Source: an uncultured Actinomycetes bacterium (GTDB taxonomy: Bacteria; Actinomycetota; UBA4738; HRBIN12). Taken from it: DNA of 64,000 nucleotides. Positions 4,799-47,848 of this stretch are shown piece after piece; position 1 is the first letter of the stretch, and the number at the start of each line of letters is the position of its first letter. The position numbers and the translations under genes were made by a program. A model generated the notes under the pieces. The model had not been told where the DNA came from. It made no database searches and saw only the letters and a list, made by a program, of their open reading frames with translations. Where the stretch lies: assembly GCA_963704885.1 (NCBI GenBank), contig CAVPIB010000004.1, positions 928,001-992,000 on the forward strand, given 5' to 3'.

Positions 4799-4816
4799 TG
4801 AGGAAGGAGACCTGCG

Positions 4817-6927: not shown

Positions 6928-7368
6928 ATGCGCAGGTTCAGTCTGCTGGCGGCCGCGGCGCTCGCGACCGCCATGGTATTGGCCGCATGTGGCGGCGGTG
7001 ACGATGGAAGTGGTGACGGCGGTGGCGACGGAGGTGGCGACAACGGGGGCGGCGGCTCGACGGCCCTCGCGGTCACGGCCCCGAGCGGCGCTGCGAACGA
7101 CGGGTTCGCGGAGACGTCGCTCAGCGTTGCCGCCGACACTCCGTTCACCATCAACTTCACCAACGAAGACGAAGGCATCCTGCACAACGTGCAGATCTTC
7201 GAGGGAACGGATACGAGCGCAACGGCCGTGTGGACACCCGAGGGGAACGCCATGATCACCGGACCGGACGAAGCGCTCTACGAGATCCCCGCCCTGCCGG
7301 CGGGCACCTACACGTTCAACTGCTTCTCGCACCCGACCACCATGGTCGGGACGTTGACGGTGGGCTAG
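6928..7368 (+). CDS. Cupredoxin (type 1 blue copper) lipoprotein
   Basis: Lipobox LAAC, Gly/Asp-rich linker, HNV...CFSHPTTM (H,C,H,M ligand set); AGGAAGGAG RBS. Confidence 0.85.
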   Translation: MRRFSLLAAAALATAMVLAACGGGDDGSGDGGGDGGGDNGGGGSTALAVTAPSGAANDGFAETSLSVAADTPFTINFTNEDEGILHNVQIFEGTDTSATAVWTPEGNAMITGPDEALYEIPALPAGTYTFNCFSHPTTMVGTLTVG

Positions 7369-7381
7369 GGATCTGGAAACG

Positions 7382-8098
7382 ATGAGGATGGCGGCCGACC
7401 CGATCTCCCAGACCGAGCGAGCGAACGTGAACTCAACGCCAGGCCTCGGAGACACCCCTCCCGCCCCCGCGACCCCCTCGCGGACGCCGGGCATGCGGAT
7501 AGGGATCGGGCTCGCGGCCGCCATCCTCGTCATCCTGGCGTGGCGCCTCCCGATCTGGGAGGCAAGGCTCTCGGCGCCGCAGTACCCACTGGGGCTCTCG
7601 CTCAGCGCGGGCGCCCAAGGTGTTAGCGGAGACATCGAACAGATCAACGTTCTGAACCACTACGTGGGGATGGCGGCGTTCGATCCCTCGGACGCGCCTG
7701 AGACGGCTCTTTGGGTGTGGGCGATCCTGTTCGCGCTCGGGGCGGTCGCGGTGGCGACGGCGTTGGACGTTCGTCACCCGCTCGCTCGGCTGGCGCGGAT
7801 CGGACTGTGGCTCGTCCCTCTAGGCGCACTCGCCGACGTGCAGTACCGGCTCTACCAGTACGGGCACAGCGTCCAGCCCGACGCCACGATCCGATTGGAG
7901 CCGTTCACCCCTCTCGTTATCGGACCCACCCGTGTGCTGAACTTCACGACCTGGGCGTTCCCAGGCGGAGCGATCTGGTGCCTGCTCGGCGCAGCGTTCC
8001 TCATGAGCTTCGGGGCTCGCTTGATCTTGTGGGGCCGCGAAAGGTGGGCGACCCGGCCCATCTACGTGGACGATGACGTGGAGATCGAAGCGTCGTGA
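7382..8098 (+). CDS. nosB: NosB-like membrane protein of clade II nos clusters
   Basis: LPIW...APQYPLGL, INVLNHYVGM, YQYGH, PFTP motifs; about 4 TM segments; position between nosZ and nosD. Confidence 0.75.
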   Translation: MRMAADPISQTERANVNSTPGLGDTPPAPATPSRTPGMRIGIGLAAAILVILAWRLPIWEARLSAPQYPLGLSLSAGAQGVSGDIEQINVLNHYVGMAAFDPSDAPETALWVWAILFALGAVAVATALDVRHPLARLARIGLWLVPLGALADVQYRLYQYGHSVQPDATIRLEPFTPLVIGPTRVLNFTTWAFPGGAIWCLLGAAFLMSFGARLILWGRERWATRPIYVDDDVEIEAS

Positions 8099-30412: not shown

Positions 30413-33400
30413 CTATGGGCAGGGATCGACGTGCAGGTACTGGCGGCACTCTTCTGACGTGAGCGACCGTGTGACGTTCGTTCGAGCGATCGCGAGCAGC
30501 TCGTCGATGTCGAGGGTCCAGACGCGCACACCGTCACAGTCCTGCGCCGCGAGGAGCGCGCCGTCGGGACTGAACGCGAGGCCGCCCCCGTAGCAGAACT
30601 CGTGCCCTAGATCCGGCGCCGGCGCAGGCAGCGTGAGACGCAGCTCCCGCGTGTCGGTGTCGTAGAGACGCACCTCCTGCCTCCCGATGACCGCCAGGGT
30701 CGACCCGTCGGGACTGAACGAGACGCGTCCCCTCGCTTCCTCGGGAAACGACCCCAAGAGCTGCGCGGATGCCACGTCCCAGATCCGGATGGGTCCATCC
30801 TCATCCTGCGTGACGATCCTTCCCCCGCGAGGATCGATCGCCACGCTGGTCGCGTGGGTGGGGAGAGTGGCGATCTCGGACCCGTCAGCACCGTCGAGCA
30901 CGACCACGACCCGATCCGGGTCTGCGTCGGCGCCGGCGATGGCGATGGTCCCGTCCGGACCAACCTCCAGGACTCCGATCGACAGCGGCTGCGCCCTCCG
31001 CCAGACCTCGCGACCGTCGAGTCCGACCAACGCGATGGAAGCCTGCGTGGGCGAGACGACGAGGTGGGCGCCATCGGGCGCCCAGGATGCGAACGCTGTC
31101 TCGATCGGAGGTCGGCTGACGCTCGTCCCTTCGACCAGGGCGAGGACCCCACCGCGACGCTGCTGGATGACCGATCCGTCGACCGGGTTCACCTCGAACG
31201 GGGCGATCGGCAACGTGAGGGAGAGTCCGAACGGGGTCGGCGCGGGCGCCCCCAGATCCCACGCGAGGAGGCCCGCCCCGGCCTTCCCATCGTCGGCGAC
31301 GATGATGAGTCGGCTCCCCGACGGCGTGAACTCGACCTGGCCCGACCAGATGGTCGGCAGCGACAGACCGGCCCGCTCCCCGTCGCCCACGGGGCGAACG
31401 TCCCAGATCCGGACGGCATCCGAGGCGGTCACGATCCGCTGACCGTCGGCGGTGAAAGCGACGTCCGTGACGGCGCCGGCGCCGGCGCCGCCGGCCGCGA
31501 GGAACGCCAGTGTCGATCGGAACTCGGTGGAACCGACCTCCCAGACCTTGGCGCTTCCGTCGATCGAGCCCGTGACCAGTCGCTCGCCGTCGGGGCTCCA
31601 GTCGGAGGTGATGACGGTGGCGTCGTGCTGCCAGGCGGTGTACAAGAGCTCCCCGGTCGTCGAATCCCAGACGTAGGCACTGCCCGATAGGAGACGACCA
31701 TCGGGACTCCATGACAGGGGGCCGTTGATCCCCCTGAAGGGCGGCGCTCTGAAAGCGACACCGCGACCACGGCCGATGGTGGGAACGATGCGGCCGCCAT
31801 CATCGCCGTTCCTCTCCACCATGACGATGGCGATGCGCGACCCGTCGGGACTGAGTGCCACGTGGTCGTAGTGGTTCAGGCCATCGAACGTCCTGACCAC
31901 TCGCAACGTCCTGACCACTCGCCCGGTATCGGCGCGAGCCACAACGACTCGGCCGGCCGACGGCCAGCGCGCCGCCACCAGCGAACCCTGCACGTCGAGT
32001 GCGATCCCCCGTGCCTCGCGCGAGCCGTGACGTTCCCACAAGAGGGAATCGCTCTCTGCGTCCCACACGCGGAGCCAGCCGTCGGTCCCAGTCGTGATGA
32101 GGCTCGTCCCGTCCGGCGTGAACGCCATGTCGGTCACACGACCCTCGTGCGCGCCGAAGGCGCGCACGAGGGCACCCGAGGGATCGAGGATCGCCACGCG
32201 CCCGGGCCCGTCTGCTTCTTGCGCCGCGATCGAACCGTCGACGCTCGTGGCGACGGGGCCGCTCAGCCCCGGGATCGTCGCGACGATCCGTGACGCCGCG
32301 ATCGCGCGGTGGAGCGCCTCCACGGCCTCCGGAACCGCTGCACCGGTGGCTGCGCGCGAGCGTTCCACCGCCTCCATCGCGAGCAGCACCGCGCGCTCGG
32401 GGTCGTCGTCGAGGTTCGCGACCGATGCGGCGGCCAGCTCGCGGGCCCCCGAGATCGCTGCCTCGCGGCTCGCGCGGCGACTCTGGCCGGTCGCGACGAG
32501 CGTGAGCGAGCCCGCGACGAGAGCGGCCACCGCGAAGACCGCGACGAGCGCGCGGAGCCGCCGGGCCGCACGCCGCTCGACCTCAGCCTCGTGCTCGCGC
32601 CGTCGCTCGTCCGTGAGCCGCTCTTCCTCGCGCGCGCCGGCGGCGGCGGCCACGTACCTCCGAACGTCGTGTCCGAGCGCCAGGCCCGTCGACCCGACCC
32701 ACCCTTCGGCCTGCTCGAGCCTGGCTCCCCGCAGAAGGAAGCTCGGATCCTGCCCGGCTGCGGCCCACTCCGACGCGGCCCGGGCCAGGATGCGTTCCTG
32801 ACGCAGGTCTTCGCGCGCCTCGTCGATCCACCCGTGCAGCCGTGGCCATGCGTCGAGGAGCGCCTCGTGCGCGATCTCGACGGTCGGCTCGCGAGAGGCA
32901 GGCTCGCGGTCGAACGTCAGGATCCTCAGGCGCCCGAACGTCTCGAGCACGTGGTCGATCGTCGTGTCCTCGAGGTTCAGCGAGCCGAGGGTACTTCGCG
33001 TGACCCGTCGCCGCGTATCCCGCCTGCCCTCACCGAGCGCTACGAGCCGGAGGAAGATCTGGCGGATCGCGCGCCGCTCGTCCCCGCCGGCCCGCCGCAC
33101 CGCCTGGTCCGCGCTCGACGCCAGCGTGCCCACGATGCCACCGAGGTCGCGATAAGTGGCGAGCGTCATCGCGCGGTCGGAACGCCGGTCGAACAGTTCG
33201 GTCAGGGTGAACTGGATCAGTGGCAGCGAGCCCGGTTGGTGAGCCGCATCCGCGATCATGTCCGCCACGAGACCCGGCTGGGGGTGCACGCCGGCGCGTT
33301 CGGCCGGGCCGCGGATCGCCTGTTCCAGTTCGTCCGGCTGCAGCGGAGCGATCGCTTCGGTCCGGCTCGCGAGCAGCTCCCCGAACCTCGGGTATACGAG

Positions 33401-35347
33401 CGGTCGGTCGTAGAGATCCGCCCGGAGGGTGGCGATCACGCGCACTCGGCTCTCGGGATCGGCGCACGCCACTCGGATGCATTCCAGGAAGTCCGCCCGC
33501 TCGGCCTCCGTCTCGGTGAGCGTGAAGAGCTCCTCGAACTGGTCGATCACGATGACCACATCCGCGTCGCCGGGGATCGCCTTCTTCACGGCCTCGAGGA
33601 GCCCCCGGGAGCTCCCACGGACGACGTCTCCCAAGCGCTGCACGGCTCGAACCGACACGCGGCCGAGCGCGGCCTCGAGCTCGTCGTACGGATGCGGTCC
33701 CGGGGAGAGCTCGGTGGCGAGGACCGGCTCGCCCAGCGCACCATCGCGCAAAGCCGGAACGACGCCCGCCCGCACGAGCGACGACTTGCCGCATCCGCTC
33801 GGACCGACAACCGCGACGAACCGCGCGTTCGGACCCGATTCGAGGAGACGCTCTATAACCTGCCCAACGGCCATCGAACGGCCGAAGAAGTCCGACGCGT
33901 CGGCCTCTGAGAACGGCCGCAGTCCTCGATACGGGTTCCGGAGGGGGTCGTCGACGAGAACCGCGGTCTGCGGCACGGAGGTGGCGAGTGCGGCACGGGC
34001 GGCGTCGGCGAACGCGTCGGCGGCGACCGGCTGCGAACCATCCGCCCCATCGAGCAGTTCCGCCAGGAGTTCGGGAAGGCTGCCGCCGAGCAAACGCCGG
34101 ACGATCGATCCGAGCCGGTAGACGTCGTCCTCCGCCGATGGCGGCGAGCCGGCCCCGATCGAGAACCCCGTGACGTAGGCGTTGCCGTCCGCATCGAAGA
34201 TCACGTTGGCGTCGTCGAAGTCGCCGTGGGCGACCCCCTGTCGATGCGCGAACGCCAACGCTGACGACACCTGCTCGATCACCTGGAGGGCTCGGCCGCG
34301 ATCGAGCTCCTCTCCTCGCTCGACGACGGCCCGTAGCGACGAGCCTCGCAGGTAGCGCCGCACGACGTAGGCACGACCGGGCTCACGCCAGTAGTCGTAG
34401 ATCGGGACGATGTACGGGTGCTCGAGGGCCGCAACCGCTTGCGCTTCCGGCTCGAAGCGCTCGACGAACGCCTGCGTGCTCGCGAGGTGCTCGTGGAAGA
34501 CCTCGACCTCGACATCGCGCCCAACCCGAGGCTGGATCGCCCGGAATCGGATACCTGAGCTCGTCTCGCCGAGCTTCTCCAACAGCCGGTAGCCCCGGAG
34601 CGGCTCGCCTCGTAGCTCGAGTGAAAGGTCCTGCGCGAGGATCAGCCCGTGCAGCCGCGCGAGCTCGGCCGAGGGATCGATCCCCAGCTCATCGGCGAGG
34701 ATCTCCCGGGCGCGCTGGAATGCCCCAAGCGCCTCGGCCTGACGCCCTTCCCTGTAGAACGCGAGCATCAACTGTTCCCAGAGGCGCTCCCGCAGCGGGT
34801 GGCGCGCGAGGAGCGGTTCGAGCTCCCCGATCGCGCGCGCCGCCCACCCCGCGGCAAGGAGCGCCCCGATCCGCTCCTCCATCGCCTCCATCCGCCGCGC
34901 GTCGAGCCGGGCTGCCTCCGCGAGCAAGGAGCGCTCGGCTACATCGGCGAGCGCGGGTCCCCGCCACATCGCGAGTGCGTCTTCGAGCGTGTCGATCGCG
35001 ACCTTCGGGTCGACGGGAAGGGTCTTCCGCGCGTCGCGCACGAGTGCGTCGAACCTGGTGGCGTCGACGTCGAGGGGATCGAGGACCATGACGTATCCGG
35101 GATCCCGACCCTTAAGGATCCCCTCACCGAGTGTCTTGCGCAGGTTCGACACGTAGGTCTGAAGCGTGTTCCGCGCCCCGGCGGGCGGCTCGTCGCCCCA
35201 GATCTCCTCGATCAACGTGTCAGCGGGGACGACCTCGTTCGCGCGAACGAGGAGGTTGGCGAGGACGGCGCGCTGCTTCGGGCCGCCCAGCGGCAACGCA
35301 CCGTCGCCCGCGTCGACCTCCAACGGGCCGAGCACTCGGAACTGCAC
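30413..35347 (-). CDS. SARP/BTAD regulator - pseudokinase - nSTAND1 NTPase - TM - WD40 protein
   Basis: FRVLGPL and HPLRERLW (BTAD); degenerate kinase; NPYRGLRPF, GPSGCGKSS, IDQFEELF, HEALL (nSTAND1); TM; WD40 repeats. Confidence 0.9.
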   Translation of the reverse strand: MQFRVLGPLEVDAGDGALPLGGPKQRAVLANLLVRANEVVPADTLIEEIWGDEPPAGARNTLQTYVSNLRKTLGEGILKGRDPGYVMVLDPLDVDATRFDALVRDARKTLPVDPKVAIDTLEDALAMWRGPALADVAERSLLAEAARLDARRMEAMEERIGALLAAGWAARAIGELEPLLARHPLRERLWEQLMLAFYREGRQAEALGAFQRAREILADELGIDPSAELARLHGLILAQDLSLELRGEPLRGYRLLEKLGETSSGIRFRAIQPRVGRDVEVEVFHEHLASTQAFVERFEPEAQAVAALEHPYIVPIYDYWREPGRAYVVRRYLRGSSLRAVVERGEELDRGRALQVIEQVSSALAFAHRQGVAHGDFDDANVIFDADGNAYVTGFSIGAGSPPSAEDDVYRLGSIVRRLLGGSLPELLAELLDGADGSQPVAADAFADAARAALATSVPQTAVLVDDPLRNPYRGLRPFSEADASDFFGRSMAVGQVIERLLESGPNARFVAVVGPSGCGKSSLVRAGVVPALRDGALGEPVLATELSPGPHPYDELEAALGRVSVRAVQRLGDVVRGSSRGLLEAVKKAIPGDADVVIVIDQFEELFTLTETEAERADFLECIRVACADPESRVRVIATLRADLYDRPLVYPRFGELLASRTEAIAPLQPDELEQAIRGPAERAGVHPQPGLVADMIADAAHQPGSLPLIQFTLTELFDRRSDRAMTLATYRDLGGIVGTLASSADQAVRRAGGDERRAIRQIFLRLVALGEGRRDTRRRVTRSTLGSLNLEDTTIDHVLETFGRLRILTFDREPASREPTVEIAHEALLDAWPRLHGWIDEAREDLRQERILARAASEWAAAGQDPSFLLRGARLEQAEGWVGSTGLALGHDVRRYVAAAAGAREEERLTDERRREHEAEVERRAARRLRALVAVFAVAALVAGSLTLVATGQSRRASREAAISGARELAAASVANLDDDPERAVLLAMEAVERSRAATGAAVPEAVEALHRAIAASRIVATIPGLSGPVATSVDGSIAAQEADGPGRVAILDPSGALVRAFGAHEGRVTDMAFTPDGTSLITTGTDGWLRVWDAESDSLLWERHGSREARGIALDVQGSLVAARWPSAGRVVVARADTGRVVRTLRVVRTFDGLNHYDHVALSPDGSRIAIVMVERNGDDGGRIVPTIGRGRGVAFRAPPFRGINGPLSWSPDGRLLSGSAYVWDSTTGELLYTAWQHDATVITSDWSPDGERLVTGSIDGSAKVWEVGSTEFRSTLAFLAAGGAGAGAVTDVAFTADGQRIVTASDAVRIWDVRPVGDGERAGLSLPTIWSGQVEFTPSGSRLIIVADDGKAGAGLLAWDLGAPAPTPFGLSLTLPIAPFEVNPVDGSVIQQRRGGVLALVEGTSVSRPPIETAFASWAPDGAHLVVSPTQASIALVGLDGREVWRRAQPLSIGVLEVGPDGTIAIAGADADPDRVVVVLDGADGSEIATLPTHATSVAIDPRGGRIVTQDEDGPIRIWDVASAQLLGSFPEEARGRVSFSPDGSTLAVIGRQEVRLYDTDTRELRLTLPAPAPDLGHEFCYGGGLAFSPDGALLAAQDCDGVRVWTLDIDELLAIARTNVTRSLTSEECRQYLHVDPCP
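31887..31922. repeat. Exact 18-bp tandem duplication, in frame
   Basis: AACGTCCTGACCACTCGC x2, encoding RVVRTL-RVVRTF. Confidence 0.85.
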
Positions 35348-35459
35348 CCGGCGACCGTACCCAGGACCTCGTTCGTGGCGCAAGGTGGCATCGTGGACCG
35401 GGCCGCGCAAGGTTCACGCAAACCCGAACGGATGCGCGGCGATATCCTCGTCGGAAGCT

Positions 35460-37822: not shown

Positions 37823-39295
37823 GTGAAGGCCGGAGGGATCAACGAGCGACGGAACCGGATCGGCCTCCGGTGGATCGGCCTGGGGCTCTGGCTCGCGCTG
37901 CTCGCGGGCAGCGCCGTCCTGGCGCGTGCCGCCGGCGCCACCACGTCCGCGCTGCCGTTCGTTGCCGTCGCCGTGCTCGCGGTCCTCGGAGTGGTCGGGC
38001 TGGTCGCGTATGCGCGCCTGACGAGCGCGCCGCCGCAGCTGCGCACGCTGCGCGTGTTCGCGATCTTGCTGCCCACGCTGTTCATCATGTGCATCGAGGC
38101 GATCCTGCTGATCGTCGAGGCCGACGAGCTGTTCACGGAGGTGGGCGAGCACATCCTCGTGACGGCGGTCCTCTCGCTTTGCGCGATCCCGTTCTCGATC
38201 TGGATATTCCGGTCGTTCGCCGCGCTCCGTGACGAGCTCGCCCGTCGCGCCGCGCGGCTCGAGCGGCTCCATCGCGCATCGCTCACAGTGACCGGCGAAC
38301 CATCGGTGCCGCGGCTGCACGAGGCCATCGTGCGCGGTGCTCGCGACGTGGTCGCCGCCGATCGGGCCGTCCTGCTGCTCGCTGCCGGTGACGGCGAGGA
38401 GGGCCTGATGGCCGACCCGCCGGTCCCCGAGCCCGACGAGATCGACCTGGCCCTGCTCCGCTCGGCCGGGTCGGCGGCGTCCGACGGCGCCGACCGCTCG
38501 TACCTGACCACCCGCACCCGTGGGGGGGCGCCTCATGTCCTGCTCGTACGGCGGGCGGCCGGATCGCCGTTCGGCGCGGAGGAAGGGCTCGTCCTCGACA
38601 TGTTCGGTGTGGCGGCGGCCGCCGGCCTGGAAAACGCCCAGCGTCTGGAGGAGGCCCAGCAGTTGGCGACGGTCGAGGAGCGGGAGCGGATCGCGAGGGA
38701 TCTCCACGATGACCTCGGGCAGCTCCTCGGATACCTCACGACGAAGATCCAGGCCGCTCGCGAGTTGGTCGCGTCCGGCCGGTCGAGCGCGGCCGCGGAG
38801 GAGCTCGCCGGCCTGGAGGAGGCGACCCGCTCGTTGAGCGCCCAGGTGCGCGAGGCCATCCTGGGGCTGCGGACCTCCGTCGGACCGGACCGGCCCCTGG
38901 GGCAGGCGATCGAGGAATACACGGCGGAGTTCGGGATCCAGGCGGGCCTCCGCACGTCCTTCTCGGGTCCGGTGACCGCCGGTGGTTCCCTGGCCAGTCC
39001 CGCGCGGTATCAGGTGATGCGGATCGCCCAAGAGGCGATGTCCAACGCCCGCCGGCACGCAGCGGCCACGACGATGGCGGTCGCGCTCGACGAGCACGAC
39101 GGCGTATTCGAGCTGTCCGTGCGAGATGACGGCGCGGGATTCGACCCGACGACAGCGGCCCGCTCGGGACGGTTCGGCCTGATCACGATGGCCGAGCGTG
39201 CGCGGGCTGTGGGCGGGACCCTCGACGTTCGGTCGACCCTCGGCGAGGGGACGACCGTTGCCCTGTCGGTGCCGGTCAACCCGGTGGGAGCCTGA
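37823..39295 (+). CDS. Membrane sensor histidine kinase (HisKA_3, NarX/UhpB-like)
   Basis: 4 TM segments, GAF-like region, ERERIARDLHD, QEAMSNARRH, DDGAGF. Confidence 0.92.
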   Translation: MKAGGINERRNRIGLRWIGLGLWLALLAGSAVLARAAGATTSALPFVAVAVLAVLGVVGLVAYARLTSAPPQLRTLRVFAILLPTLFIMCIEAILLIVEADELFTEVGEHILVTAVLSLCAIPFSIWIFRSFAALRDELARRAARLERLHRASLTVTGEPSVPRLHEAIVRGARDVVAADRAVLLLAAGDGEEGLMADPPVPEPDEIDLALLRSAGSAASDGADRSYLTTRTRGGAPHVLLVRRAAGSPFGAEEGLVLDMFGVAAAAGLENAQRLEEAQQLATVEERERIARDLHDDLGQLLGYLTTKIQAARELVASGRSSAAAEELAGLEEATRSLSAQVREAILGLRTSVGPDRPLGQAIEEYTAEFGIQAGLRTSFSGPVTAGGSLASPARYQVMRIAQEAMSNARRHAAATTMAVALDEHDGVFELSVRDDGAGFDPTTAARSGRFGLITMAERARAVGGTLDVRSTLGEGTTVALSVPVNPVGA

Positions 39296-39297
39296 CC

Positions 39298-39960
39298 ATG
39301 CGGGTGCTGCTCGCCGACGATCACGAGCTCTTCCGCGAAGGACTCGTGAGCCTCCTGCGCACGCACGACATCGAGGTCGTGGGCCAGGCATCCGACGGCG
39401 CGGAGGCCGTGGCCCTCGCGCGCGCCCTCACACCCGACGCCGTCCTGATGGACCTGATGATGCCGGGGATGGGTGGACTCGAAGCCACCCGTCTGATCAA
39501 GGCAGAGCTCCCCGACATCAAGGTTGTGATCCTCACGGTGTCCGAGGCCGACGAGGACCTGTTCGAGGCGATCAGGAGCGGGGCGCACGGCTACCTCGTG
39601 AAGAGCACCCCTTCGAACGACTTCTTCGAGTTGCTGGAGGCGCTCGACCGGGGCGAGGCGCCGCTCTCCCGAGGGCTGGCGGTCAAGATCGTGCGGTACC
39701 TGGCGTCGGGCGGCGTCGGCGGCGCCGCCGCGTTGACCCCTCGAGAGGACGAGGTTCTCCGGCTCGTCGCGGAGGGGCGAACGAACCACGAGATCGCGAC
39801 GGAGCTCTCGGTGTCGGACGCCACGGTCAAGTTCCACATGTCCAACATCCTCAACAAGCTGCACCTGGAGAACCGGGCCCAGGCGGTCGCGTTCGCGCAT
39901 CGCCACGGGCTCACCCAGGAGCCGACCTCTCCGCCCGAGGACCCTGCCGCGGACCAGTAG
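39298..39960 (+). CDS. NarL/LuxR family response regulator
   Basis: [24 protein letters not shown]. Confidence 0.95.
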
Positions 39961-40068
39961 TCCTGCCCCTACCTAGCCGAAGGTCGAGGTCCTCCTCCCC
40001 CCGTCTGGAGCGACTGCGCGGGCCCTTCCGCCCTGAGGGGCAACCTGGCTCAGGCCTAGGGTCGAGCC

Positions 40069-40896
40069 ATGAACGAGCAGCTCGAACGAGACGCGACAAC
40101 GGGCGGCACGGCGGCGGAGACGAACGAAGGGGTCAGCCGCCGATCGTTCCTCGGGAAGGTCTTCATCGCGGCCAGCGCGGTGACGCTCGGGAGCAAGACC
40201 GTGGCGTTCGCCGACGACGTCATGGGGAACGACGACTCCGAGGACGCACCCCAGTGGGCGATGGTCATCGACCTCGCGCGCTGCGACGGCTGCAAGGAGT
40301 GCACGAAGGCCTGCCAGGAGACGCACTTCACCGGCGACCAGGAATGGATCAAGGTGTTCGAGGTCCAGGACGAGGCCGGGAACACGGTGTTCCTGCCACG
40401 CCCGTGCATGCAGTGCGAGAACGCCCCCTGCCTGAACGTCTGCCCCGTCGGCGCGACGTTCCGCAACGAGAGCGGCACCGTGCTCGTCGATCACGAGCTG
40501 TGCATCGGCTGCAGGTTCTGCATGGCGGCGTGCCCCTACGACGCCCGCTCGTTCAACTGGGGCGAGCCCGAGAACCCGCCCGGGGCCACTTTCGCGAAGT
40601 ACTCGCCCGAGTTCCCGGTCCCGCACCGCAAGGGCACCGTGGACAAGTGCATGTTCTGTGCCCACTACGCGATGAACGGACAGCTCCCGGCTTGCGCGAG
40701 CGCCTGCCCGATGAGCGCGATCTGGTTCGGTGACCTGAAGGCCGACGTCGCTACGAACGGACTCGAGACGGTCCAGCTGTCTTGGTTGCTGAGCGAGCGC
40801 AACGCCTACCGCTTGAAGGAAGAGCTCGGCACACGCCCGCGGGTCTGGTACCTGCCCGGTCACGGCGAGGACTCCAAGGTGGTGCTGCCGCAATGA
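40069..40896 (+). CDS. Tat-exported 4x[4Fe-4S] protein (NrfC/PsrB-like)
   Basis: SRRSFLG leader; CDGCKECTKAC, CMQCENAPCLNVCP, CIGCRFCMAACP, KCMFC...PACASACP; GTRPRVWY. Confidence 0.9.
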   Translation: MNEQLERDATTGGTAAETNEGVSRRSFLGKVFIAASAVTLGSKTVAFADDVMGNDDSEDAPQWAMVIDLARCDGCKECTKACQETHFTGDQEWIKVFEVQDEAGNTVFLPRPCMQCENAPCLNVCPVGATFRNESGTVLVDHELCIGCRFCMAACPYDARSFNWGEPENPPGATFAKYSPEFPVPHRKGTVDKCMFCAHYAMNGQLPACASACPMSAIWFGDLKADVATNGLETVQLSWLLSERNAYRLKEELGTRPRVWYLPGHGEDSKVVLPQ

Positions 40897-42341
40897 GCGC
40901 GACGGTCGACGACCGCCGAGCGCGCCTGCTCGAGCGCGCCGAAGCCCCGATCCGCCCGGGGGCTTGGGGCGTGCGAGGGCGACTCCTCGTGGTGGGGCTC
41001 GGCCTCGTGGTGGCGTGGGGCATCTTCGCGTGGATCTGGCAGGTCTCACACGGCCTGGCGGTCACCGGGCTGAACAACCACGTGAGCTGGGGTTTCTACC
41101 TCACCAACTTCGTGTTCTTCATCGGCATCAGCCACGCGGGGACGCTGATCTCCGCGATCCTCCGGCTGACCCACGCCGAGTGGCGCCGACCCATCACCCG
41201 GCTCGCGGAGATGATCACCGTCGTCGCGCTCGTGGTGGGCGCCACCATGGTCGTCGCCGACATGGGGCGCCCCGACCGTCTGCAGTTCGTTGTGACGCAC
41301 GCGCACCTACGGTCGCCGATCCTATGGGACGTCCTGTCGATCAGCACCTACATCGTCGGGAGCATCCTCTACCTGTACCTGCCGCTGGTACCCGACCTCG
41401 CGATCCTCCGCGACGGCGGCGTCGGCGGCAGGGTCCGTGGCTGGCTGTACTCGGGACTCGCGCTCCGCTGGCACGGCCTGTCCGAGCAGCGACGCCTGCT
41501 GCTCCGCGCGATCGCTGTCATGGCGGTCGTGATCGTGCCGGTCGCGGTCTCGGTCCACACGGTGGTCTCGTGGATCTTCGGGATGACGCTTCGTAACGGG
41601 TGGAACTCCACGATCTTCGGGCCCTACTTCGTGGTGGGCGCGATCTTCTCTGGGATCGCCGGGATCATCGTCGTGATGGCGATCTTCCGCCGGGCCTACC
41701 ACCTCGAGGAGTTCATCACCGAGATGCACTTCCGGTATCTCGGATCCCTCCTGTTGGTGCTGGGCATCCTGTACGCCTACTTCACGCTGTCGGAGTACGC
41801 GACCGTCGGGTTCAAGATGGAGGTCGGCGAGGCGACGCTCCTGTCGGCTTTGCTCGTCGGGCGGTTCGCCCCTTACTTCTGGTTCTTCGCGATCTTCGGC
41901 TTGATCGTGCCGATCGTCCTGCTCGCCCTGCCCCGCACACGCAAGGTCAAGTGGATAGTCACCGCCGCGGTGCTCGTGAACATGGGCATGTGGCTCAAGC
42001 GGTTCGTGATCGTGATCCCGTCGATGGCGCTCCCCTTGATGCCATACGAGTGGGGGACCTACCGCCCGACCTGGGTTGAGTGGTCGATCACGGTAGGCGC
42101 GTTCGCGGCCTTCGCCCTGGTGTTCGTCGATCTTCGCCCGGATCTTCCCGGTGATCTGGCGGCGTACGTGTACGACCCCACCCCCGTGGGCCTCCAGGCC
42201 TGGTGGGCGCGGAGCTACATGATCCTCGTCCCGTTCGTCGTGATCTGGACGATCTACCTGTTGCTCCTCTGGCTCGTGCTGCGGGTCAGGAGGGCGGGCG
42301 CAGCGGCGTCAGCGCCATCCGATATCGCCGCAACGAGTTGA
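40893..42341 (+). CDS. NrfD/PsrC/ActC family quinol-interacting membrane protein
   Basis: WGFYLTNFVFFIGISHAG, RLAE, DMGRPDR, SPILWD, HTVVSW, KRFVIVIP; the 3' end looks chimeric. Confidence 0.88.
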   Translation: MSATVDDRRARLLERAEAPIRPGAWGVRGRLLVVGLGLVVAWGIFAWIWQVSHGLAVTGLNNHVSWGFYLTNFVFFIGISHAGTLISAILRLTHAEWRRPITRLAEMITVVALVVGATMVVADMGRPDRLQFVVTHAHLRSPILWDVLSISTYIVGSILYLYLPLVPDLAILRDGGVGGRVRGWLYSGLALRWHGLSEQRRLLLRAIAVMAVVIVPVAVSVHTVVSWIFGMTLRNGWNSTIFGPYFVVGAIFSGIAGIIVVMAIFRRAYHLEEFITEMHFRYLGSLLLVLGILYAYFTLSEYATVGFKMEVGEATLLSALLVGRFAPYFWFFAIFGLIVPIVLLALPRTRKVKWIVTAAVLVNMGMWLKRFVIVIPSMALPLMPYEWGTYRPTWVEWSITVGAFAAFALVFVDLRPDLPGDLAAYVYDPTPVGLQAWWARSYMILVPFVVIWTIYLLLLWLVLRVRRAGAAASAPSDIAATS

Positions 42342-42351
42342 AGGAGGAACG

Positions 42352-42861
42352 ATGAGGAAGACGCAGCTCCTGCTGAGGGTGATGGCGACGGTCGCCGCGC
42401 TGACGCTGGTCCTGGCCGCATGCAGCTCGTCCGATGACGGCTCGTCCGCCGGGGCGACAAGCGCGACCGAGGCGCCCAGCCCGACCGAGGCGTCGACCCC
42501 GACGGCAGCCGAGGGCGCGGCCGTCACGGTCACCGTCGGCGAGACCGACGTGCAACACATGTACATGAACCTCGATCCAGGGACGGTCGCCGCAGGCACG
42601 GTGACGTTCACGGTCGTGAACGAAGGGGTCAAGAAGCACGAGTTCGTGATCCTGTCGACCGACGTGATGGCCGCCGACCTGACGGTCGAGGGTGACGAGG
42701 TCGTCGAGGACGACTACAACGCCATCGACGAGATCGGGGACCTGCCGGCCGGCGAGACCCTGACCCTGACCGTCGAGCTGCCTGCCGGTCACTACGCCCT
42801 GATCTGCAACCTCAAGGGGCACTTCCGGATGGGGATGTACGCGGACTTCACGGTCGAGTAG
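42352..42861 (+). CDS. Cupredoxin (blue copper) lipoprotein
   Basis: Lipobox LAAC, Ser/Thr/Pro linker, HEF...CNLKGHFRMGM; AAGGAGG RBS. Confidence 0.85.
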   Translation: MRKTQLLLRVMATVAALTLVLAACSSSDDGSSAGATSATEAPSPTEASTPTAAEGAAVTVTVGETDVQHMYMNLDPGTVAAGTVTFTVVNEGVKKHEFVILSTDVMAADLTVEGDEVVEDDYNAIDEIGDLPAGETLTLTVELPAGHYALICNLKGHFRMGMYADFTVE

Positions 42862-42881
42862 TTCCCACGTTCCGGATGCGA

Positions 42882-42905
42882 GAGGGCGGCCCGTCGGCCG
42901 CCCTC
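42882..42905. terminator. Probable bidirectional hairpin terminator
   Basis: GAGGGCGGCC-CGTC-GGCCGCCCTC between convergent genes. Confidence 0.6.
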
Positions 42906-42930
42906 ATCGTTCCCGCCACAGGCGGGGCCG

Positions 42931-43757
42931 CTAGGCCAAGGTCTCCTCGAGCGCGCGACGTACGAGGACCTTCGCCAGCTCGCGGCGGTACTCGGCGCTG
43001 CCGAACGAGTCCGACGGCGGGCTGGTGCCCTTCGTCCGCCCGACCTGCCGCGGTAGCCGGGTCCGAGCCGCCACCGAGTGCCTCCTCGACCCCGGCCGCG
43101 CGCAGCGGCGTCTCGCCCATGTTGGTGAGCGCCACGTGCGCGGCCCCGTTGGACCGAACCGCCGCCACTCCGACGAGCGCCCAGTCCTGCGCGCGACGGT
43201 GGAACTTGATGTAGCTCCACCCGGCGTCGTTCGTCACCGGAACCCGTACCTCGGTCAGCACCTCGTTCGCCGCAAGGTCCGGCGTGAAGAGGCCTTTGAA
43301 GAAGTCGCCGGCCGCCACGGTGCGCGAGGCGCCGCCGGCACCACGCACCACGAACTCCGCGCCAAGCGCGACCATGACGGTCGGCAGGTCGGAGGCAGGG
43401 TCCGCGTGCGCGATCGAACCGCCGATCGTTCCCATGTGCCGGACCTGCGGGTCACCGATCTCACTGGCCGTGTGAGCCACGATCGGGACACAGCTCCTGA
43501 AGCGCCTCGCTGTTCGCGACGTCGTGGTGACGGGTGAGCGCGCCTATCGCCACCATGTCCCCGTCCTGCTTGACGTAGGAAAGGTCGCCGACGCGGCCGA
43601 TGTCCACCAGCAGCGATGGTCTCGCCAAGCGGAACCTCATCAGCGGCAGCAGGGAATGCCCGCCGGCCAGGATCTTGGCGTCTTCGTTCGTGGACAGGAG
43701 CTCGATCGTGTGGTCGATGCTCTCGGCCCGCGCGTACTCGAACGATGCCGGGATCAT
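42931..43757 (-). pseudogene. Xanthine dehydrogenase family FAD subunit (CoxM-like), 2 apparent frameshifts
   Basis: [36 protein letters not shown] spread over different frames; may be sequencing error. Confidence 0.8.
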
Positions 43758-46116
43758 GCGCCACCTCCTTGCGCGTCCTTGATAGCTCGCCACACCCGCT
43801 CGGGCGAGGCGGGCTTGCCGATGTCCGTCACGCCCAGATGTGAGACGGCGTCGACCACGGCGTTGATCACGGCCGGGGGCGATGCGATCGTGCCGGCCTC
43901 ACCGATCTCCTTGACGCCCGAGAGGGTTGGTCGTGGACGGCGTGACAGTGCGGTCGAGCGTGAGGTCGGGCAGCTCGGTCGCACCCGGGACCAGGTATTG
44001 CGTCATGGAGCTGGTCGCCAGGTTGCCGCTCTCGTCGTAGATCGCCTCCTCGTAGAGAGCCTCGGCGATGCCCTGCGCCACGCCGCCGTGCACCTGCCCC
44101 TCCACGATCATCGGGTTGATCACGGTGCCGCAGTCGTCGACCGCCACGTAACGCAGGATGTCGGTCGCGCCGGTCTCGGTGTCGACCTCGACGACGCAGA
44201 CGTGCGCAGCCGGCGGGCCACGTGAAGTTCGGCGGATCGTAGACGGCCGTGGCCTCCAGGTTCGGCTCGTAGCCGGCCGGCAGGTTGTGCGCGTGCCATG
44301 ACGTGAGCGCCAGCTCGGGGATGGTCCTGGCCTTGTCCGGAGCGCCCTTCACGCGCCAGGCGTCGTCGGCGTACTCCAGGTCGTCCTCGGCCACCTCCAG
44401 CTCGTGCGCGGCCAGCACCCGCGCCTTCTCCTTGATCTTCTCTATGGCGAAGTGCAGCGCGACCCCGCCGACCGACAGCGAACGCGAACCGTACGTGTCC
44501 ATGCCGAGCGGGGTGAGCGCGGTGTCGCCGTGCATGACGTCGATGTCGTCGGGCGACACACCCAGCCCGTCGGCCACGATCTGCGACCAACTGGTCTCGT
44601 GACCCTGGCCGTGCGGCGACGTGCCCGTCGACACGACGATCTTGCCGGTCGGGCAGACAGCGGATGGTCGCCGCGTCCCAGCCACCGGCGGCGTATCGGA
44701 GCGCGCCCAGGATGTTCGAGGGCGCCAGGCCGCACATCTCGATGTAGGTCGAGAGCCCGATCCCGATCTGCATGGTGTCGCCGCTGTCTCGCCGGGCCTG
44801 CTGCTCCTTGCGGAACTGCTGGTAGTCGGCCAGCTCCAGCGCCCGGTCGAACGCCGGCTCGTAGTTGCCGGAGTCGACGCTCAGGCCGCAGATGGACGCG
44901 GTCGCCTCGTCGAACGGCGGGTGGAAGTTCATCCGGCGCACCTCGGCCGGGTCCTTGCCGATCCTCCGCGCGAACGCAGTCGACGAGCCGCTCGAGGACG
45001 TACGTGGCCTCCGGCCGACCGGCGCCGCGGTAGGCATCGGTCGGCGTGGCGTTCGTGAGCACGCCGCGGAACTCGAACCAGTACGCCTCGGGCTTGTAGG
45101 GACCCATGTAGACCCAGCCACCGAGCTCGGGGATGCCGGGCGTGAGCAGCTGGTAGTACGCGCCCATGTCCGCGATCTCCACGAACTTCAGTCCGAGGAT
45201 CTTGCCGTCGTCGGTGCCCGCGAGCGTGCAGTCGTGCGTCACGCCCTCGGCCGTGGATCGTGGCGACGTAGTTCTCGCTGCGTTCCTCGATCCACTTGAC
45301 CGGCCGGCCGGTGACCTTCGTGAGCACCAACGCCAGCGCTTCCTCCGCGTAGACGTTCAGCTTCGAGCCGAACCCGCCGCCCACGTCCGGCGCGATCACG
45401 CGGAGCTTCTCCTCGGGGATGCCGCACACGCCCGAGAGCGTGACCTTGGCGATGTGCGGGATCTGCGTGGCGGTCCAGAGCGTGAACTCGCCCATGGACG
45501 GTATGGAGGTGGCCAGGCAGCCGCGTGGCTCGATGGCGTTCGGGATCAGCCGTGGCTGGTGGTAGTGCTCCTGGACGATCACCGGCGCGGTCTCGAATAA
45601 CTCCTGGTCACCGGCCCCACCGTGGCTCCAGTGGACCGAGACGTTCGAGCCGAGCTCCTCGTGGATCAAAGGCGCGCCGTCGGCCATGGCGGCTTCGACG
45701 TCGATGACCGCCGGCAGCTCGGTGACGTCGACGTGACGGATCTCGGCCGCGTCCAGCGCCTGCTCGCGGGTCTCGGCCACCACGACCGCCACCGCGTCAC
45801 CGTGGAAGCGGATCTTGTCCTTGGTGAGGGGGTAGTGGTTCGGGATCTTGATGTCCTCGGTGATCGGCCAGACGAACGGCAGCCCTCCGACCTCCAGCTC
45901 GGCGGCCGTGTAGACACCGACCACGCCCGGCATCGTAGAAGCGGCGGAGGTGTCGATCGAGTTGATCGTGGCATGGACGTACGGCGGGCGAACCATGGCC
46001 ATCCACACCATCCCGGGGAGGGTGTGGTTGTCGATGTAGCTCGCCTGTCCGGTGAGGAGCTCGGGGTCCTCCTTGCGCAGGACCTCGCGCCCGATGTACT
46101 TCTCGGTGGTCGCCAT
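43754..46116 (-). pseudogene. Molybdopterin-binding large subunit (AYRGAGR type), about 5 apparent frameshifts
   Basis: RKEDPELLTG, DVGGGFGSK, AYRGAGRPE, HGQGHET, GQVHGG, IGEAG in successive frames. Confidence 0.82.
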
Positions 46117-46127
46117 GGCGCGCCCCC

Positions 46128-46604
46128 TCAGGCCTTCGCGCCGCTCATGGAGCCGGCGGCATCCAGGATCGACTTGACGATGTTCTGGTAGCCGGTGCAG
46201 CGACAGAGGTTGCCCTCCAACGCCTCCCGGACGTCTTCTTCCGTGGGCGTCGGGTTCTCCTTCAGGAAGCTGGCCGCCGCCATGAGCATGCCTGGCGTGC
46301 AATAGCCGCACTGGAGGCCGTGGTTGCGATGGAACGCGTCCTGCAGCGGGTGCATCTCGCCGTCGGAGGCCATGCCCTCGATCGTGTCGACGGACCGGCC
46401 GTCGGCCTGCGCCGCAAGCAACGTGCAGGACTTGACCGACTCGCCGTCCAGCAGAACGGTGCAGCTGCCGCACGACGAGGTGTCGCAACCCACGTTCGTA
46501 CCGGTGAGCCCGAGGGTCTCTCTGATGAAGTACACGAGGAGCGTGCGCGGCTCGACGTCGGCCTCGCGCTGAATCCCGTTCACGGTGACGGAGACGTTGG
46601 TCAC
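46128..46604 (-). CDS. 2Fe-2S small subunit (CoxS-like)
   Basis: [24 protein letters not shown]. Confidence 0.92.
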
Positions 46605-46714
46605 TGGCGACTCCTTTCAGACCGGAGCTGTTGGGGCCGTTCGACAGTGCCGGAGTCTAGTCCTGTCCCTCACTCCGCGCGACCCGAGGAGTGCTCACGC
46701 CGTACCATCGGGGT

Positions 46715-47848
46715 ATGAGCGAGATCACCGACGTGCTCGAAGCCATCGAGTCGCTCTCGGCGAAGGGTGAACGGATGGCCCTGGCCACGATCGTGGCGGT
46801 CCGAGGCTCGACCTACCGGCGCCCCGGCGCCCGCCTGCTGGTCCCCGAGGACGGTGCCCCGATCGGCAACATCAGCGGCGGATGCCTGGAGGGCGACGTA
46901 GCGGACATGGCCAAGATAGTCATGGAGGAGGGCATCGCGCGACTGGCCGGCTGGGATCTCACGGCCGACGACGACGATGTCTGGGGCCTCGGTCTGGGGT
47001 GCAACGGGGCGATCGAGGTGTTCATCGAACCGGCCGACCGCGCCGCCGAGGTGGCCGGCGCGCTGCGGATGGCCCTGGAGGAGGAAAGGCCTATCAGTGT
47101 GGTGACCGTCCTCGAGTCCGCGATCGCAACCGTGGAGTCAGGTGCCCGGATCGTGGTCAAGCCCGATGGCACCGGCGAGGGAACGCTCGGCGACGATGCC
47201 GTGGACCAGGCGGCGACCGCGGCCGCGCTGGAGCAGCTCGCCGCCCAGAGCTCCGAGATCCGCACGATCCCCGGCGAGGTCCGCGCGTTCGTGGAGGTCC
47301 TGGAGCCGCCGCTCCGACTGCTGATATGCGGCGCGGGCCACGACGCGATCCCGCTGGTGAAGGCCGCCTCGATCCTGGGCTGGAACCCGATCGTGGTGGA
47401 CGACCGAGCCGGGTTCCTGACCCCCGAGCGATACCCCGAGGCCGCCGGGTTCGTCCACGTTGAGCAGCCGGACGAAGCAGCCAAGGCAGCGGCGGCCGAC
47501 GAGCGGACGTTCGTCACGGTGATGACGCACAACTTCCTGCGCGACAAGGAGTACCTCCGCTCGTTCCTGGGCTCCCCCGTCGCATACATCGGGATGCTGG
47601 GGCCGGCAGCGCGCACACAGCGGCTCTTCATGGAGCTAGCTGACGAGGGCGTGGTCATCACCGACGAGGACCGCGCACGTATCCATGGCCCAGCTGGGCT
47701 GGACCTGGGCAGTGAAGGACCGGAGGAGATCGCCGGCTCGATCGTGTCCGAGATCGTCGCGGTCCGACGCCGCCGGGCCGGTGGATTCCTGAAAGAAAGG
47801 CAGGGACCGATCCACGACCGCCCACGCCCAGGCGCCGAAGCGCGCTGA
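46715..47848 (+). CDS. XdhC/CoxI family Mo-cofactor chaperone
   Basis: GSTYRRPGA, SGGCLE, GLGCNG, GAGHDA, MTHN, PAGLDLG. Confidence 0.9.
   Translation: MSEITDVLEAIESLSAKGERMALATIVAVRGSTYRRPGARLLVPEDGAPIGNISGGCLEGDVADMAKIVMEEGIARLAGWDLTADDDDVWGLGLGCNGAIEVFIEPADRAAEVAGALRMALEEERPISVVTVLESAIATVESGARIVVKPDGTGEGTLGDDAVDQAATAAALEQLAAQSSEIRTIPGEVRAFVEVLEPPLRLLICGAGHDAIPLVKAASILGWNPIVVDDRAGFLTPERYPEAAGFVHVEQPDEAAKAAAADERTFVTVMTHNFLRDKEYLRSFLGSPVAYIGMLGPAARTQRLFMELADEGVVITDEDRARIHGPAGLDLGSEGPEEIAGSIVSEIVAVRRRRAGGFLKERQGPIHDRPRPGAEAR

Follow-up and report, generated by a model that had tools for sequence, protein, structure and literature searches.

A candidate molybdenum-free and haem-free relative of the alternative complex III core, with a blue-copper carrier, in an uncultured actinomycete

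Alternative complex III (ActABCDEF; 6F0K, 6BTM, 6LOD, and 8K9E) reduces cytochrome c or auracyanin. The NosGH proteins of clade II nos clusters constitute a menaquinol dehydrogenase of the NapGH type, in which NosH is NapH-like and not NrfD-like. In Methanoperedenaceae, gene clusters that combine NrfD, a 4Fe-4S protein, and a multihaem cytochrome are proposed to encode menaquinone:cytochrome c oxidoreductases, according to passages of Leu et al. (2020; PMC7327174). NrfD-type modules run both ways in known complexes, and Qrc reduces menaquinone, as described in portions of PMC13059093 and PMC8076601. Here, we describe a locus of this kind in a stretch of 64,000 nucleotides (the window) of an uncultured Actinomycetes bacterium. 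The five genes that an earlier note had read from the letters alone were found where it had placed them, and its domain assignments hold against the ORF list and the Pfam and NCBIfam profiles. The features are as follows.

4802-6901, nosZ, found in the window search
37823..39295, + strand, sensor histidine kinase (Pfam HisKA_3 8.2e-14, HATPase_c 1.4e-11)
39298..39960, + strand, NarL/LuxR-type response regulator (Pfam Response_reg 4.7e-27, GerE 1.2e-20)
40069..40896, + strand, predicted Tat-exported ferredoxin-like FeS subunit of the NrfC/PsrB/ActB2/DsrO type (Fer4_11 2.2e-19)
40893..42341, + strand, ORF of an NrfD-family membrane protein (PF03916)
40893..42157, + strand, ActC-like NrfD-family core (PF03916), with a frame shift from the additional base at about 42128
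42128..42128, + strand, extra base compared with relatives (alignment with L004-L007)
42157..42158, no strand, deletion junction, at which about 498-503 bp of the relatives are missing in the window
42158..42341, + strand, remnant of the gene for protein X (last 60 codons, C-terminal transmembrane helix), in frame with NrfD
42352..42861, + strand, type-1 (blue) copper lipoprotein (SoxE 24.3 bits, Copper-bind 24.0 bits; LAAC lipobox)

The Pfam domains confirmed that a HisKA_3 kinase and a NarL-type regulator lie upstream of the module. The kinase begins with hydrophobic segments, as read by eye, which are followed by HisKA_3 and HATPase_c, and the top NCBIfam match of the regulator is NarL, at 160.5 bits and thus under the cut-off of 250. 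Orthologues of the kinase lie upstream in all eight close loci; among 80 related loci, 33 have a kinase match and 38 a regulator match. The description of the operon as having neither a molybdopterin nor a haem gene was also borne out, and no cassette protein has a Pfam match to a cytochrome c family. The GT4 and GH5 genes that flank the locus in the window were matched in none of the 80 related loci, and no other ORF cluster beyond the cassette is common to the eight orthologous loci. When intact, the locus is a self-contained cassette of six genes, encoding the kinase, the regulator, the FeS protein, NrfD, X, and the cupredoxin.

The FeS protein has 275 residues and contains Fer4 domains only, with four groups of cysteines (16 in total), all 16 of which are invariant in 56 relatives. 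Its twin-arginine motif, SRRSFLGK, precedes a hydrophobic stretch and recurs as RRxFL in the family consensus, so the protein is predicted to be exported by the Tat pathway. Its best PDB match is PsrB (2vpw_B, 5.9e-33), followed by ArrB and then ActB. The NrfD gene starts at an ATG that overlaps the stop codon of the FeS gene, and the two genes are adjacent in all 80 related loci; the genome has one NrfD locus, plus its duplicate on contig C2. The NrfD ORF scored 138.8 bits against PF03916 (cut-off, 25.8) and covered positions 2-309 of the 313 in the profile. The top PDB matches of the membrane subunit are four ActC chains of alternative complex III (6f0k_C, 6lod_C, 6btm_C, and 8k9e_C; E 1e-63 to 4e-52); in the PDB search with the NrfD protein, the four ActC chains range from 2.9e-61 (6f0k_C) to 3.8e-52, ActF gives a local match only (7.6e-4), and PsrC does not occur among the matches at E <= 0.01. 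Four quinol-site positions of Rhodothermus marinus ActC, i.e., His139, Ser164, Asp169, and Asp253, are listed in a section of PMC8076601, in which an Asp at the His139 position is also listed for DsrP and QrcD. In the alignment to ActC, S141 and D146 correspond to Ser164 and Asp169, both of which are kept, D123 takes the place of His139, and an Ile that of Asp253. Among 56 NrfD family members, D123 and D146 do not vary, and S141 is almost invariant. When either D or H is allowed at the His139 position, three of the four positions listed in that section carry the expected P-side Ser and acidic or His residues, which suggests a quinol site.

The last protein matched both PF00127 (Copper-bind; 24.0 bits, cut-off 21.2) and PF06525 (SoxE, the sulfocyanin family; 24.3 bits, cut-off 21). 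The predicted copper ligands, H96, C152, H157, and M162, are kept in nine orthologues, and the profile matches and this His-Cys-His-Met set together indicate a putative type-1 copper protein. Its top PDB matches, both weak, are auracyanin B (E 0.018) and auracyanin A (E 0.024). The NCBIfam matches to EfeO (1.5e-8; 34 bits, cut-off 270) and CopI (8.2e-6) are below the cut-offs.

From the gene content, homology, conserved residues, and synteny, we infer, with a probability of about 0.6, that FeS, NrfD, X, and the cupredoxin form a molybdenum-free and haem-free relative of the alternative complex III core. In this complex, menaquinol would be oxidised on the outer face of NrfD, at D123, S141, and D146, and the electrons would then reach the type-1 copper lipoprotein by way of the exported subunit and its four [4Fe-4S] clusters. 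The copper protein may deliver them to whichever terminal enzyme is present; NosZ would be one possible taker, and the genome contains one haem-copper oxidase. The earlier note had proposed the same haem-free and molybdenum-free route from menaquinol through Fe-S to the cupredoxin, with an ActC-like protein, and this part fits both the homology and the exchange of partners described below; the purpose it assigned to the route, the supply of NosZ, is not supported.

The membrane subunit is not intact in the window. The blastn alignments break at 42157 in all eight close loci, and the relatives have about 500 bp extra there, coding for the NrfD tail and most of X. The 503 bp in question are present on C2 (C2:15945-16447), a redundant contig in the same bin as the window's, which also has an intact gene for X, a 190-residue, membrane-anchored protein with an Ig fold and no cofactor ligands. 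The product of 42158..42341 in the window is identical to the C-terminus of X on C2 and aligns with X of L004-L007. The extra base at about 42128 shifts the last ∼10 codons of NrfD, and together with the gap of about 500 bp it results in an NrfD core fused to the C-terminal helix of the deleted neighbour X. Therefore, the ORF in the window is a chimera that lacks the NrfD tail and the start of X, and its last ∼70 codons are not NrfD. Because the exported domain of X and the NrfD tail are both removed by the deletion of about 500 bp and the insertion of 1 nt, this copy would be either impaired or mis-assembled. The earlier note had held that a catalytic subunit deleted or mis-assembled at about 42150 would speak against its proposal; a gene is indeed gone from there, but it encodes a small, cofactor-less Ig-fold subunit and not a catalytic one.

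In 73 of the 80 related loci, X is a neighbour of the FeS-NrfD gene pair. When the complex was predicted with X, the score was 0.73, compared with 0.51 for the best control, in which the membrane subunit was replaced. Among solved complexes, 58 of 80 attained 0.73, as did 2 of 110 mismatched pairs; these counts are only rough because the alignments for complex prediction were self-made. The runs had at least 85% of the contacts in common, and the pLDDT of the partners was at least 77. In the predicted complex, the helix of X lies against NrfD residues 139-220 and its sandwich against FeS residues 214-249; the FeS-NrfD part of the prediction was possibly helped by memory of the solved structures of alternative complex III. 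The prediction supports X as the third subunit of the complex, where it probably acts as a clamp between the FeS and membrane subunits.

Among the alternatives, the one that survives best is that the deletion is an artefact of assembly, that the cells carry the intact four-gene operon as on C2, and that the chimera does not exist. C2 (45,327 bp) is colinear with positions 26097-71028 in window numbering at ∼96% identity, carries the intact X, and encodes a cupredoxin protein that is 100% identical; the contamination of the bin is 4.54%. There are further signs of consensus indels in the cox-like genes at 42848-46604, with ∼9 frame changes and a COX1 match split into two pieces. Among the relatives' contigs from public runs, the deleted form occurs in none and the extra base at 42128 is absent, including from contigs X1 and X8, which come from two such runs; the highest share of words held by any public sequencing run was 0.17. 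However, the window's contig, C4, is clean elsewhere, with an ORF of 1667 codons and nearly all other genes open, and it is C2 that is noisy, with 2-51 gap events per kb to the left of the junction. Moreover, C2 and C4 differ by gap-free blocks of substitutions, the pattern of a second strain, and a 3-nt CGG microhomology is present at both breakpoints of the gap of about 500 bp, a feature that is frequent in real deletions. On balance, we regard an artefact as rather unlikely, although deserving of serious consideration.

The family to which the core belongs spans Actinomycetota, Chloroflexota, Thermoplasmata, and several further phyla. The module is patchy, being present in one of the 12 other genomes from the genus. 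The partner of the core also varies by lineage: L004-L011 and L047 have a cupredoxin; L037, L050, and L066 have a cytochrome c-EB_dh fusion; L060, L027, and L083 have EB_dh on its own; and L053, L062, and L065 have multi- or di-haem cytochromes c. At roughly even odds, we propose jointly that FeS, the ActC-like protein, and X are the core of a widespread and undescribed “mini alternative complex III” that links the quinone pool to lineage-specific outer carriers (a cupredoxin, cytochrome c, EB_dh haem b, or still unknown lipoproteins), that X is a new kind of subunit, and that the window represents a natural strain variant from which X was deleted. We found no published description of the copper-linked form. 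If this proposal is true, many uncultured bacteria and archaea of soils and sediments can move electrons from quinol to carriers of the periplasm in a third way, next to the bc complex and alternative complex III; the route would need only three subunits, and copper would replace haem in the present lineage. The reconstruction of respiratory chains from metagenomes would then be altered, since such pairs are often named as polysulfide or nitrite reductase subunits.

We consider it improbable that the cassette is a dedicated quinol dehydrogenase that supplies NosZ through the cupredoxin. The nosZDFY genes do lie in the same window, as the earlier note had reported, although the distance is ∼31 kb and not 28 kb, and no quinol dehydrogenase gene was seen within the nos cluster. 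In a survey of 200 genomes of the class, the family was found in 16, NosZ in 23, and both in 4; NosZ thus occurred in 4 of the 16 genomes with the family and 19 of the 184 without it (odds ratio 2.9, p = 0.09 in a Fisher test, in which kin genomes are not independent). In L063 (Chloroflexota), one of the 80 related loci, nosD, nosF, nosY, and the end of nosZ lie next to the module. Conversely, NosZ was not seen in 12 of the 16 family holders, which is the situation that the earlier note had said would count against its proposal, nor in 5 of the 7 holders of close orthologues in the survey or 6 of the 8 genomes with an orthologous cassette; no family member was seen in 19 of the 23 NosZ holders. 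Because most of these genomes are incomplete MAGs, absence is not proven by the failure to find a match. Furthermore, directly after nosZ, at 6928-7365, the nos cluster contains a cupredoxin lipoprotein gene of its own, a homologue of which occupies the same place in 6 of 8 related nos loci, whereas NrfC/NrfD occurs in none of these eight (a stretch of ∼8 kb each), and the ∼31 kb between the module and nosZ contains unrelated genes. The co-occurrence and synteny with nosZ that had been suggested as a check were therefore not found (4/16 and 4/23 genomes; 0/8 nos loci and 1/80 module loci), and neither a supply role nor any tie between the module and the nearby nitrous-oxide reductase is supported. 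For N2O biology, this outcome is negative: the module is not to be counted as N2O-reduction machinery, and the cupredoxin and the conserved membrane protein of the nos cluster itself are better candidates for its electron supply.

The reverse direction, in which a Qrc-like cupredoxin:menaquinone reductase would feed the quinone pool from an outside source of electrons, for instance a reduced metal, is likewise improbable. It would accord with the two directions known for NrfD-type modules and the reduction of menaquinone by Qrc, with the sub-threshold NCBIfam matches of the FeS and membrane subunits to DsrO/DsrP and QrcC/QrcD, and with the sulfocyanin-family match of the cupredoxin. However, the potential of a type-1 copper centre is typically far above that of menaquinone, so flow from the cupredoxin to quinone would be uphill; none of the eight orthologous loci compared encodes a donor-oxidising enzyme in the cassette, and the nearest solved relatives of the membrane subunit are ActC chains that oxidise quinol. 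Finally, a redox-driven oxidase or reductase for copper or iron handling, with a CopI- or EfeO-like cupredoxin, is suggested by the weak NCBIfam matches and the cassette's own two-component system, but we consider it highly improbable, given that both scores are far under the cut-offs, that the same core is joined to electron carriers (cytochromes c and EB_dh haem proteins) in other lineages, and that no metal transporter is conserved beside the cassette in the eight orthologous loci.

We return to the candidate relative of the alternative complex III core and its comparison with known systems. With NosGH, to which it is likened here by general description only, it shares the idea of a quinol dehydrogenase for NosZ, but the cassette lies outside the nos cluster, and its occurrence does not follow that of nosZ. 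The DsrMKJOP and QrcABCD complexes provide the top NCBIfam models for both subunits (DsrO 197.4, DsrP 109.2, QrcC 146.8, and QrcD 61.3 bits), but all four scores are under the curated cut-offs (200, 350, 400, and 570, respectively), and the cassette contains no DsrMKJ, QrcA, or QrcB genes; membership in DsrMKJOP was rejected on the DsrO and DsrP scores. Like the clusters of Methanoperedenaceae, as presented in the passages cited above, it has an NrfD and FeS pair with no catalytic subunit that would connect the quinone pool with extracytoplasmic carriers, in both cases by genomic inference only, but the carrier is a cupredoxin here and a multihaem cytochrome there. Unlike alternative complex III, the cassette encodes neither the pentahaem ActA nor the monohaem ActE, its FeS protein does not have the molybdopterin-like N-terminal domain ActB1, there is no second NrfD-like protein (ActF) and no ActD, the gene that follows NrfD in the relatives being that of the single-helix Ig-fold protein X, and the ActC Asp253 position is Ile. 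Nevertheless, the similarity of the membrane subunit is highest to ActC and extends along its entire length, the FeS subunit aligns with the FeS portion of ActB (residues 795-992 of the 1039 in 6f0k_B), the weak best PDB matches of the blue-copper carrier are auracyanins, and the proposed direction, from quinol to a periplasmic carrier, is the same.

Five co-directional ORFs, arranged nearly end to end, occupy positions 37823–42861 of the window, which is high-GC DNA of contig C4 in a bin (G000) of 3.0 Mb and 20 contigs. Their products are as follows.

Within 37823–42861: kinase with HisKA_3 and HATPase_c domains
Within 37823–42861: regulator with Response_reg and GerE domains
Iron–sulfur (FeS) protein, 275 residues, with Fer4 and the motif SRRSFLGK
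NrfD-family membrane protein, PF03916 (138.8 bits against a cut-off of 25.8)
Lipoprotein, 169 residues, with cupredoxin matches

Since these five ORFs and families are as the earlier note described them, and none of the five proteins matched a molybdopterin or cytochrome c family, its account of the genes and domains is correct at the level of ORF and family matches.

A scan of one genome per species yielded 80 loci encoding relatives of the membrane protein. The eight closest orthologous loci (L004–L011; 72–90% identity) align to window position 42157, after which each has roughly 500 bp of its own before the match is taken up again. The gene order in L006 is NrfD (459 codons), a 189-codon gene (L006:11380-11949), here called X, and the cupredoxin gene. 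By comparison, an additional base is present in the window near 42128, and the 3' end of the NrfD gene is missing together with most of the 189-codon gene. Because of the extra base and the missing DNA, the ORF in the window runs from NrfD through some ten frame-shifted codons into the final 60 codons of the lost gene. If the extra base is removed, the NrfD frame would stop 25 codons beyond the junction; with or without it, the last NrfD helix is retained and the exported domain of the neighbor is lost.

A second contig of the same bin, C2 (45,327 bp), is colinear end to end with positions 26097–71028, in the window and beyond, at about 96% identity, and has 503 bp that are absent from the window. 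It carries the following gene.

C2:16057-16626: intact X gene, 190 codons

The cupredoxin of C2 is identical to that of the window in protein sequence. The differences between C2 and C4 are substitution blocks, as in a second strain: C2 is a mosaic of near-identical blocks, blocks with 5–13% substitutions, and a left part rich in 1-nt gaps, where 2–51 short gap events per kb left of the junction break the kinase, regulator, FeS, and NrfD genes. C2 has the look of a haplotig or second strain that was binned together with the genome, and gene counts for the bin are inflated by it. A second NrfD match in the genome was considered as a paralogue and rejected, because C2 is a duplicate of the window region. 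The deletion breakpoints share 3-nt microhomology. Among public runs, none had more than 0.17 of the sampled words from the stretch and none contained the stretch; in contigs of relatives from four public runs, the extra base is missing, the match ends at 42157, or some sequence is present between 42157 and 42170. As the cause of the missing DNA, we consider an assembly artefact plausible but less likely than a real strain-level deletion. The module copy in the window is damaged or mis-assembled.

Several other features of the assembly were also observed.

30413–35413, minus strand: one ORF of 1,667 codons, open throughout
42848–46604, minus strand, downstream of the module: xanthine-dehydrogenase/CO-dehydrogenase-type molybdenum hydroxylase genes
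46691–47848, plus strand: XdhC
G000:C1:709158-710494: the only haem-copper oxidase subunit I match, in two pieces 24 bases apart with separate open frames

By eye, the 1,667-codon ORF combines an N-terminal transcriptional-activator-like part, the P-loop GPSGCGKS, and C-terminal WD40-like repeats. In the molybdenum hydroxylase set, an FAD subunit and an intact 2Fe-2S subunit accompany large-subunit pieces that match MoCoBD_1, MoCoBD_2, and Ald_Xan_dh_C. Over 3.3 kb of this set, the reading frame shifts about nine times, and the stretch is therefore decaying or poorly resolved; in the C2 copy, the first gene is open (321 codons) and the large subunit is broken too. These genes are either pseudogenes or the product of consensus errors. 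A further frameshift or consensus indel of the assembly may account for the split oxidase subunit I.

With an HMM iterated from the eight orthologues, gene X was detected beside the FeS–NrfD gene pair in 73 of the 80 loci. The seven loci without X (L032, L072–L075, L081, and L082) have the least similar FeS genes (37–41% identity). In L032, a Tat molybdopterin oxidoreductase gene is adjoining; this gene represents a 7-locus ORF cluster, which may or may not coincide with the seven X-less loci. A window-like kinase lies nearby in 33 of the 80 loci and a window-like regulator in 38. Nothing beyond the cassette is common to the eight orthologous loci within 5 kb, and the genes flanking the module in the window have no match in any of the 80 loci, so that the six genes act as a single cassette. 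At the 3' end of X, just 5' of the ribosome-binding site of the cupredoxin gene, the last codons (window 42300–42329 and the counterpart in L004–L006) have a DNA identity of 97–100%, compared with 70–90% in the neighboring 30-base bins, a pattern possibly due to an RNA element or to translational coupling.

Across 68 aligned X sequences, only Gly, Thr, Ala, and Trp residues are invariant or nearly so, and with Cys, His, and Met all unconserved, no cofactor site was seen. In the AlphaFold model (mean pLDDT 90.9), an eight-strand sandwich lies between an N-terminal helix and a C-terminal membrane helix. A Foldseek search with this model returned generic Ig folds only (for example, antibody domains and the Nir2 C-terminal domain) and gave no functional lead. 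A profile search of 1.84 billion representatives gave 21,181 matches at E ≤ 0.001, a count that is no measure of the size of the X family; giant Ig-repeat proteins were among the matches listed. When X was supplied as the partner in a three-chain prediction, the score was 0.73, versus 0.51 for the best control, and replacing the membrane subunit left a score of 0.51. The 0.73 mark was met by 58 of 80 solved complexes and by 2 of 110 mismatched pairs, rough counts obtained with our own alignments. The runs shared at least 85% of contacts, with a partner pLDDT of at least 77, and the predicted complex places the X helix on NrfD residues 139–220 and the X sandwich on FeS residues 214–249. The modeling supports binding of X to the FeS–NrfD core and, with it, the view of the lost gene product as a putative conserved third subunit.

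The genes that come next to this core varied with the lineage.

Candidate partner proteins at the related loci
L004–L011: cupredoxin
L047: plastocyanin-like protein
L037, L050, L066: cytochrome c fused to an EB_dh domain
L060, L027, L083: EB_dh proteins
L053, L062, L065: four-haem, multi-haem, or di-haem cytochromes
L070: small cytochrome c
Thermoplasmata loci: unknown protein of about 520 residues
About 15 loci, mostly Chloroflexota: lipoprotein pair, 1–4 kb downstream of NrfD

The loci with the lipoprotein pair include L012, L013, L015, L035, L052, L056, L061, L063, L067, and L080; one member (about 270 residues) has no Pfam family and the other (about 540 residues) has a weak TIG match only, and the pair may be the outer partner in that lineage. 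An HMM built on the cupredoxin found just five weak extra matches in the other 72 loci. The varying partners support a carrier role, and the most economical reading is that a quinol dehydrogenase core would pass electrons to whatever outer carrier the lineage has. Judging from the likeness to ActC and from typical potentials, the direction would be from quinol to copper. One haem-copper oxidase locus and one cytochrome b locus were identified in the genome, together with multicopper-oxidase-type genes; therefore, other takers for the reduced cupredoxin exist.

The earlier note had proposed that the module supplies NosZ. Located 31 kb upstream of the module are nosZ, nosD, nosF, and nosY, along with an Rrf2 regulator, and the cluster includes the following.

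4802–6901: nosZ
6928–7365, plus strand: cupredoxin lipoprotein gene, 145 codons, directly 3' of nosZ (LAAC lipobox; PF13473, 1.4e-6; C-x2-H-x3-M)
7385–8098, plus strand: membrane protein gene, next after the nos cupredoxin gene, no Pfam family

Genomes with the NrfD family, with NosZ, and with both
60 relatives: 8, 6, and 1 (G044, with an NrfD match just 36% identical)
200 genomes of the class, at least 80% complete: 16 (E ≤ 1e-80), 23, and 4
Seven of those 16, with an orthologue at least 70% identical: 7, 2, and 2
Eight genomes of L004–L011: 8, 2, and 2 (the same two genomes as in the preceding row)

In the class sample, the Fisher odds ratio was 2.9 (p = 0.09), with related genomes that are not independent; among 12 other genomes in the genus, just one had the module. 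With both present in 4 of the 16 family holders and 23 NosZ holders among 200 genomes, a dedicated supply to NosZ was not borne out. Synteny with nosZ was rare too: NrfC/NrfD occurred in none of eight nos loci of relatives (16–18 kb fetched each), and only 1 of the 80 module loci, L063, has nos genes beside the module, with a divergent two-component pair between them. In the same eight nos loci, the nos cupredoxin is in the same place in six and the membrane protein in all eight, and these two proteins are better candidates for electron entry to NosZ than the distant module. Genomes with both may use the module to feed NosZ, but NosZ does not require it, nor is it dedicated to NosZ.

The placement of the membrane protein among NrfD families was judged from PDB E-values. 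Its best solved relatives come from four structures of alternative complex III, in each case the ActC chain (2.9e-61 to 3.8e-52); ActF gave a local match only (7.6e-4), and PsrC (polysulfide reductase) was not among the PDB matches at E ≤ 0.01. The available part of an NrfD review (PMC8076601) gives four quinol-site positions for R. marinus ActC: Ser164, Asp169, His139, and Asp253. Ser164 and Asp169 are retained here as S141 and D146, whereas Asp253 is replaced by Ile and His139 by Asp (D123), the residue of DsrP and QrcD according to that part of the review. Among 56 family members, D123 and D146 show no variation, and S141 almost none. The FeS protein retains all 16 cysteines of four cubane motifs and is most similar to PsrB, ArrB, and the FeS part of ActB. 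For both subunits, the nearest NCBIfam models are DsrO/DsrP and QrcC/QrcD, but every score is under the cut-off. The cupredoxin His, Cys, His, and Met are kept in nine orthologues, and its best PDB matches are weak (auracyanin B, E 0.018; auracyanin A, E 0.024). In the available part of the review, copper and cupredoxin are not mentioned, and our search of published papers found none on a copper-linked module or on X. The module resembles an alternative complex III core paired with a copper carrier, the arrangement in Chloroflexus, but four of the five defining features tested fail, with no ActA/ActE, ActB1 domain, ActF, or ActD. The ACIII-like clusters of PMC10732223 are of the full ACIII type, with ActD and a molybdopterin subunit. 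In Methanoperedenaceae, the available part of PMC7327174 describes an NrfD and FeS pair without a catalytic subunit, beside multihaem cytochromes, as a proposed menaquinone:cytochrome c oxidoreductase.
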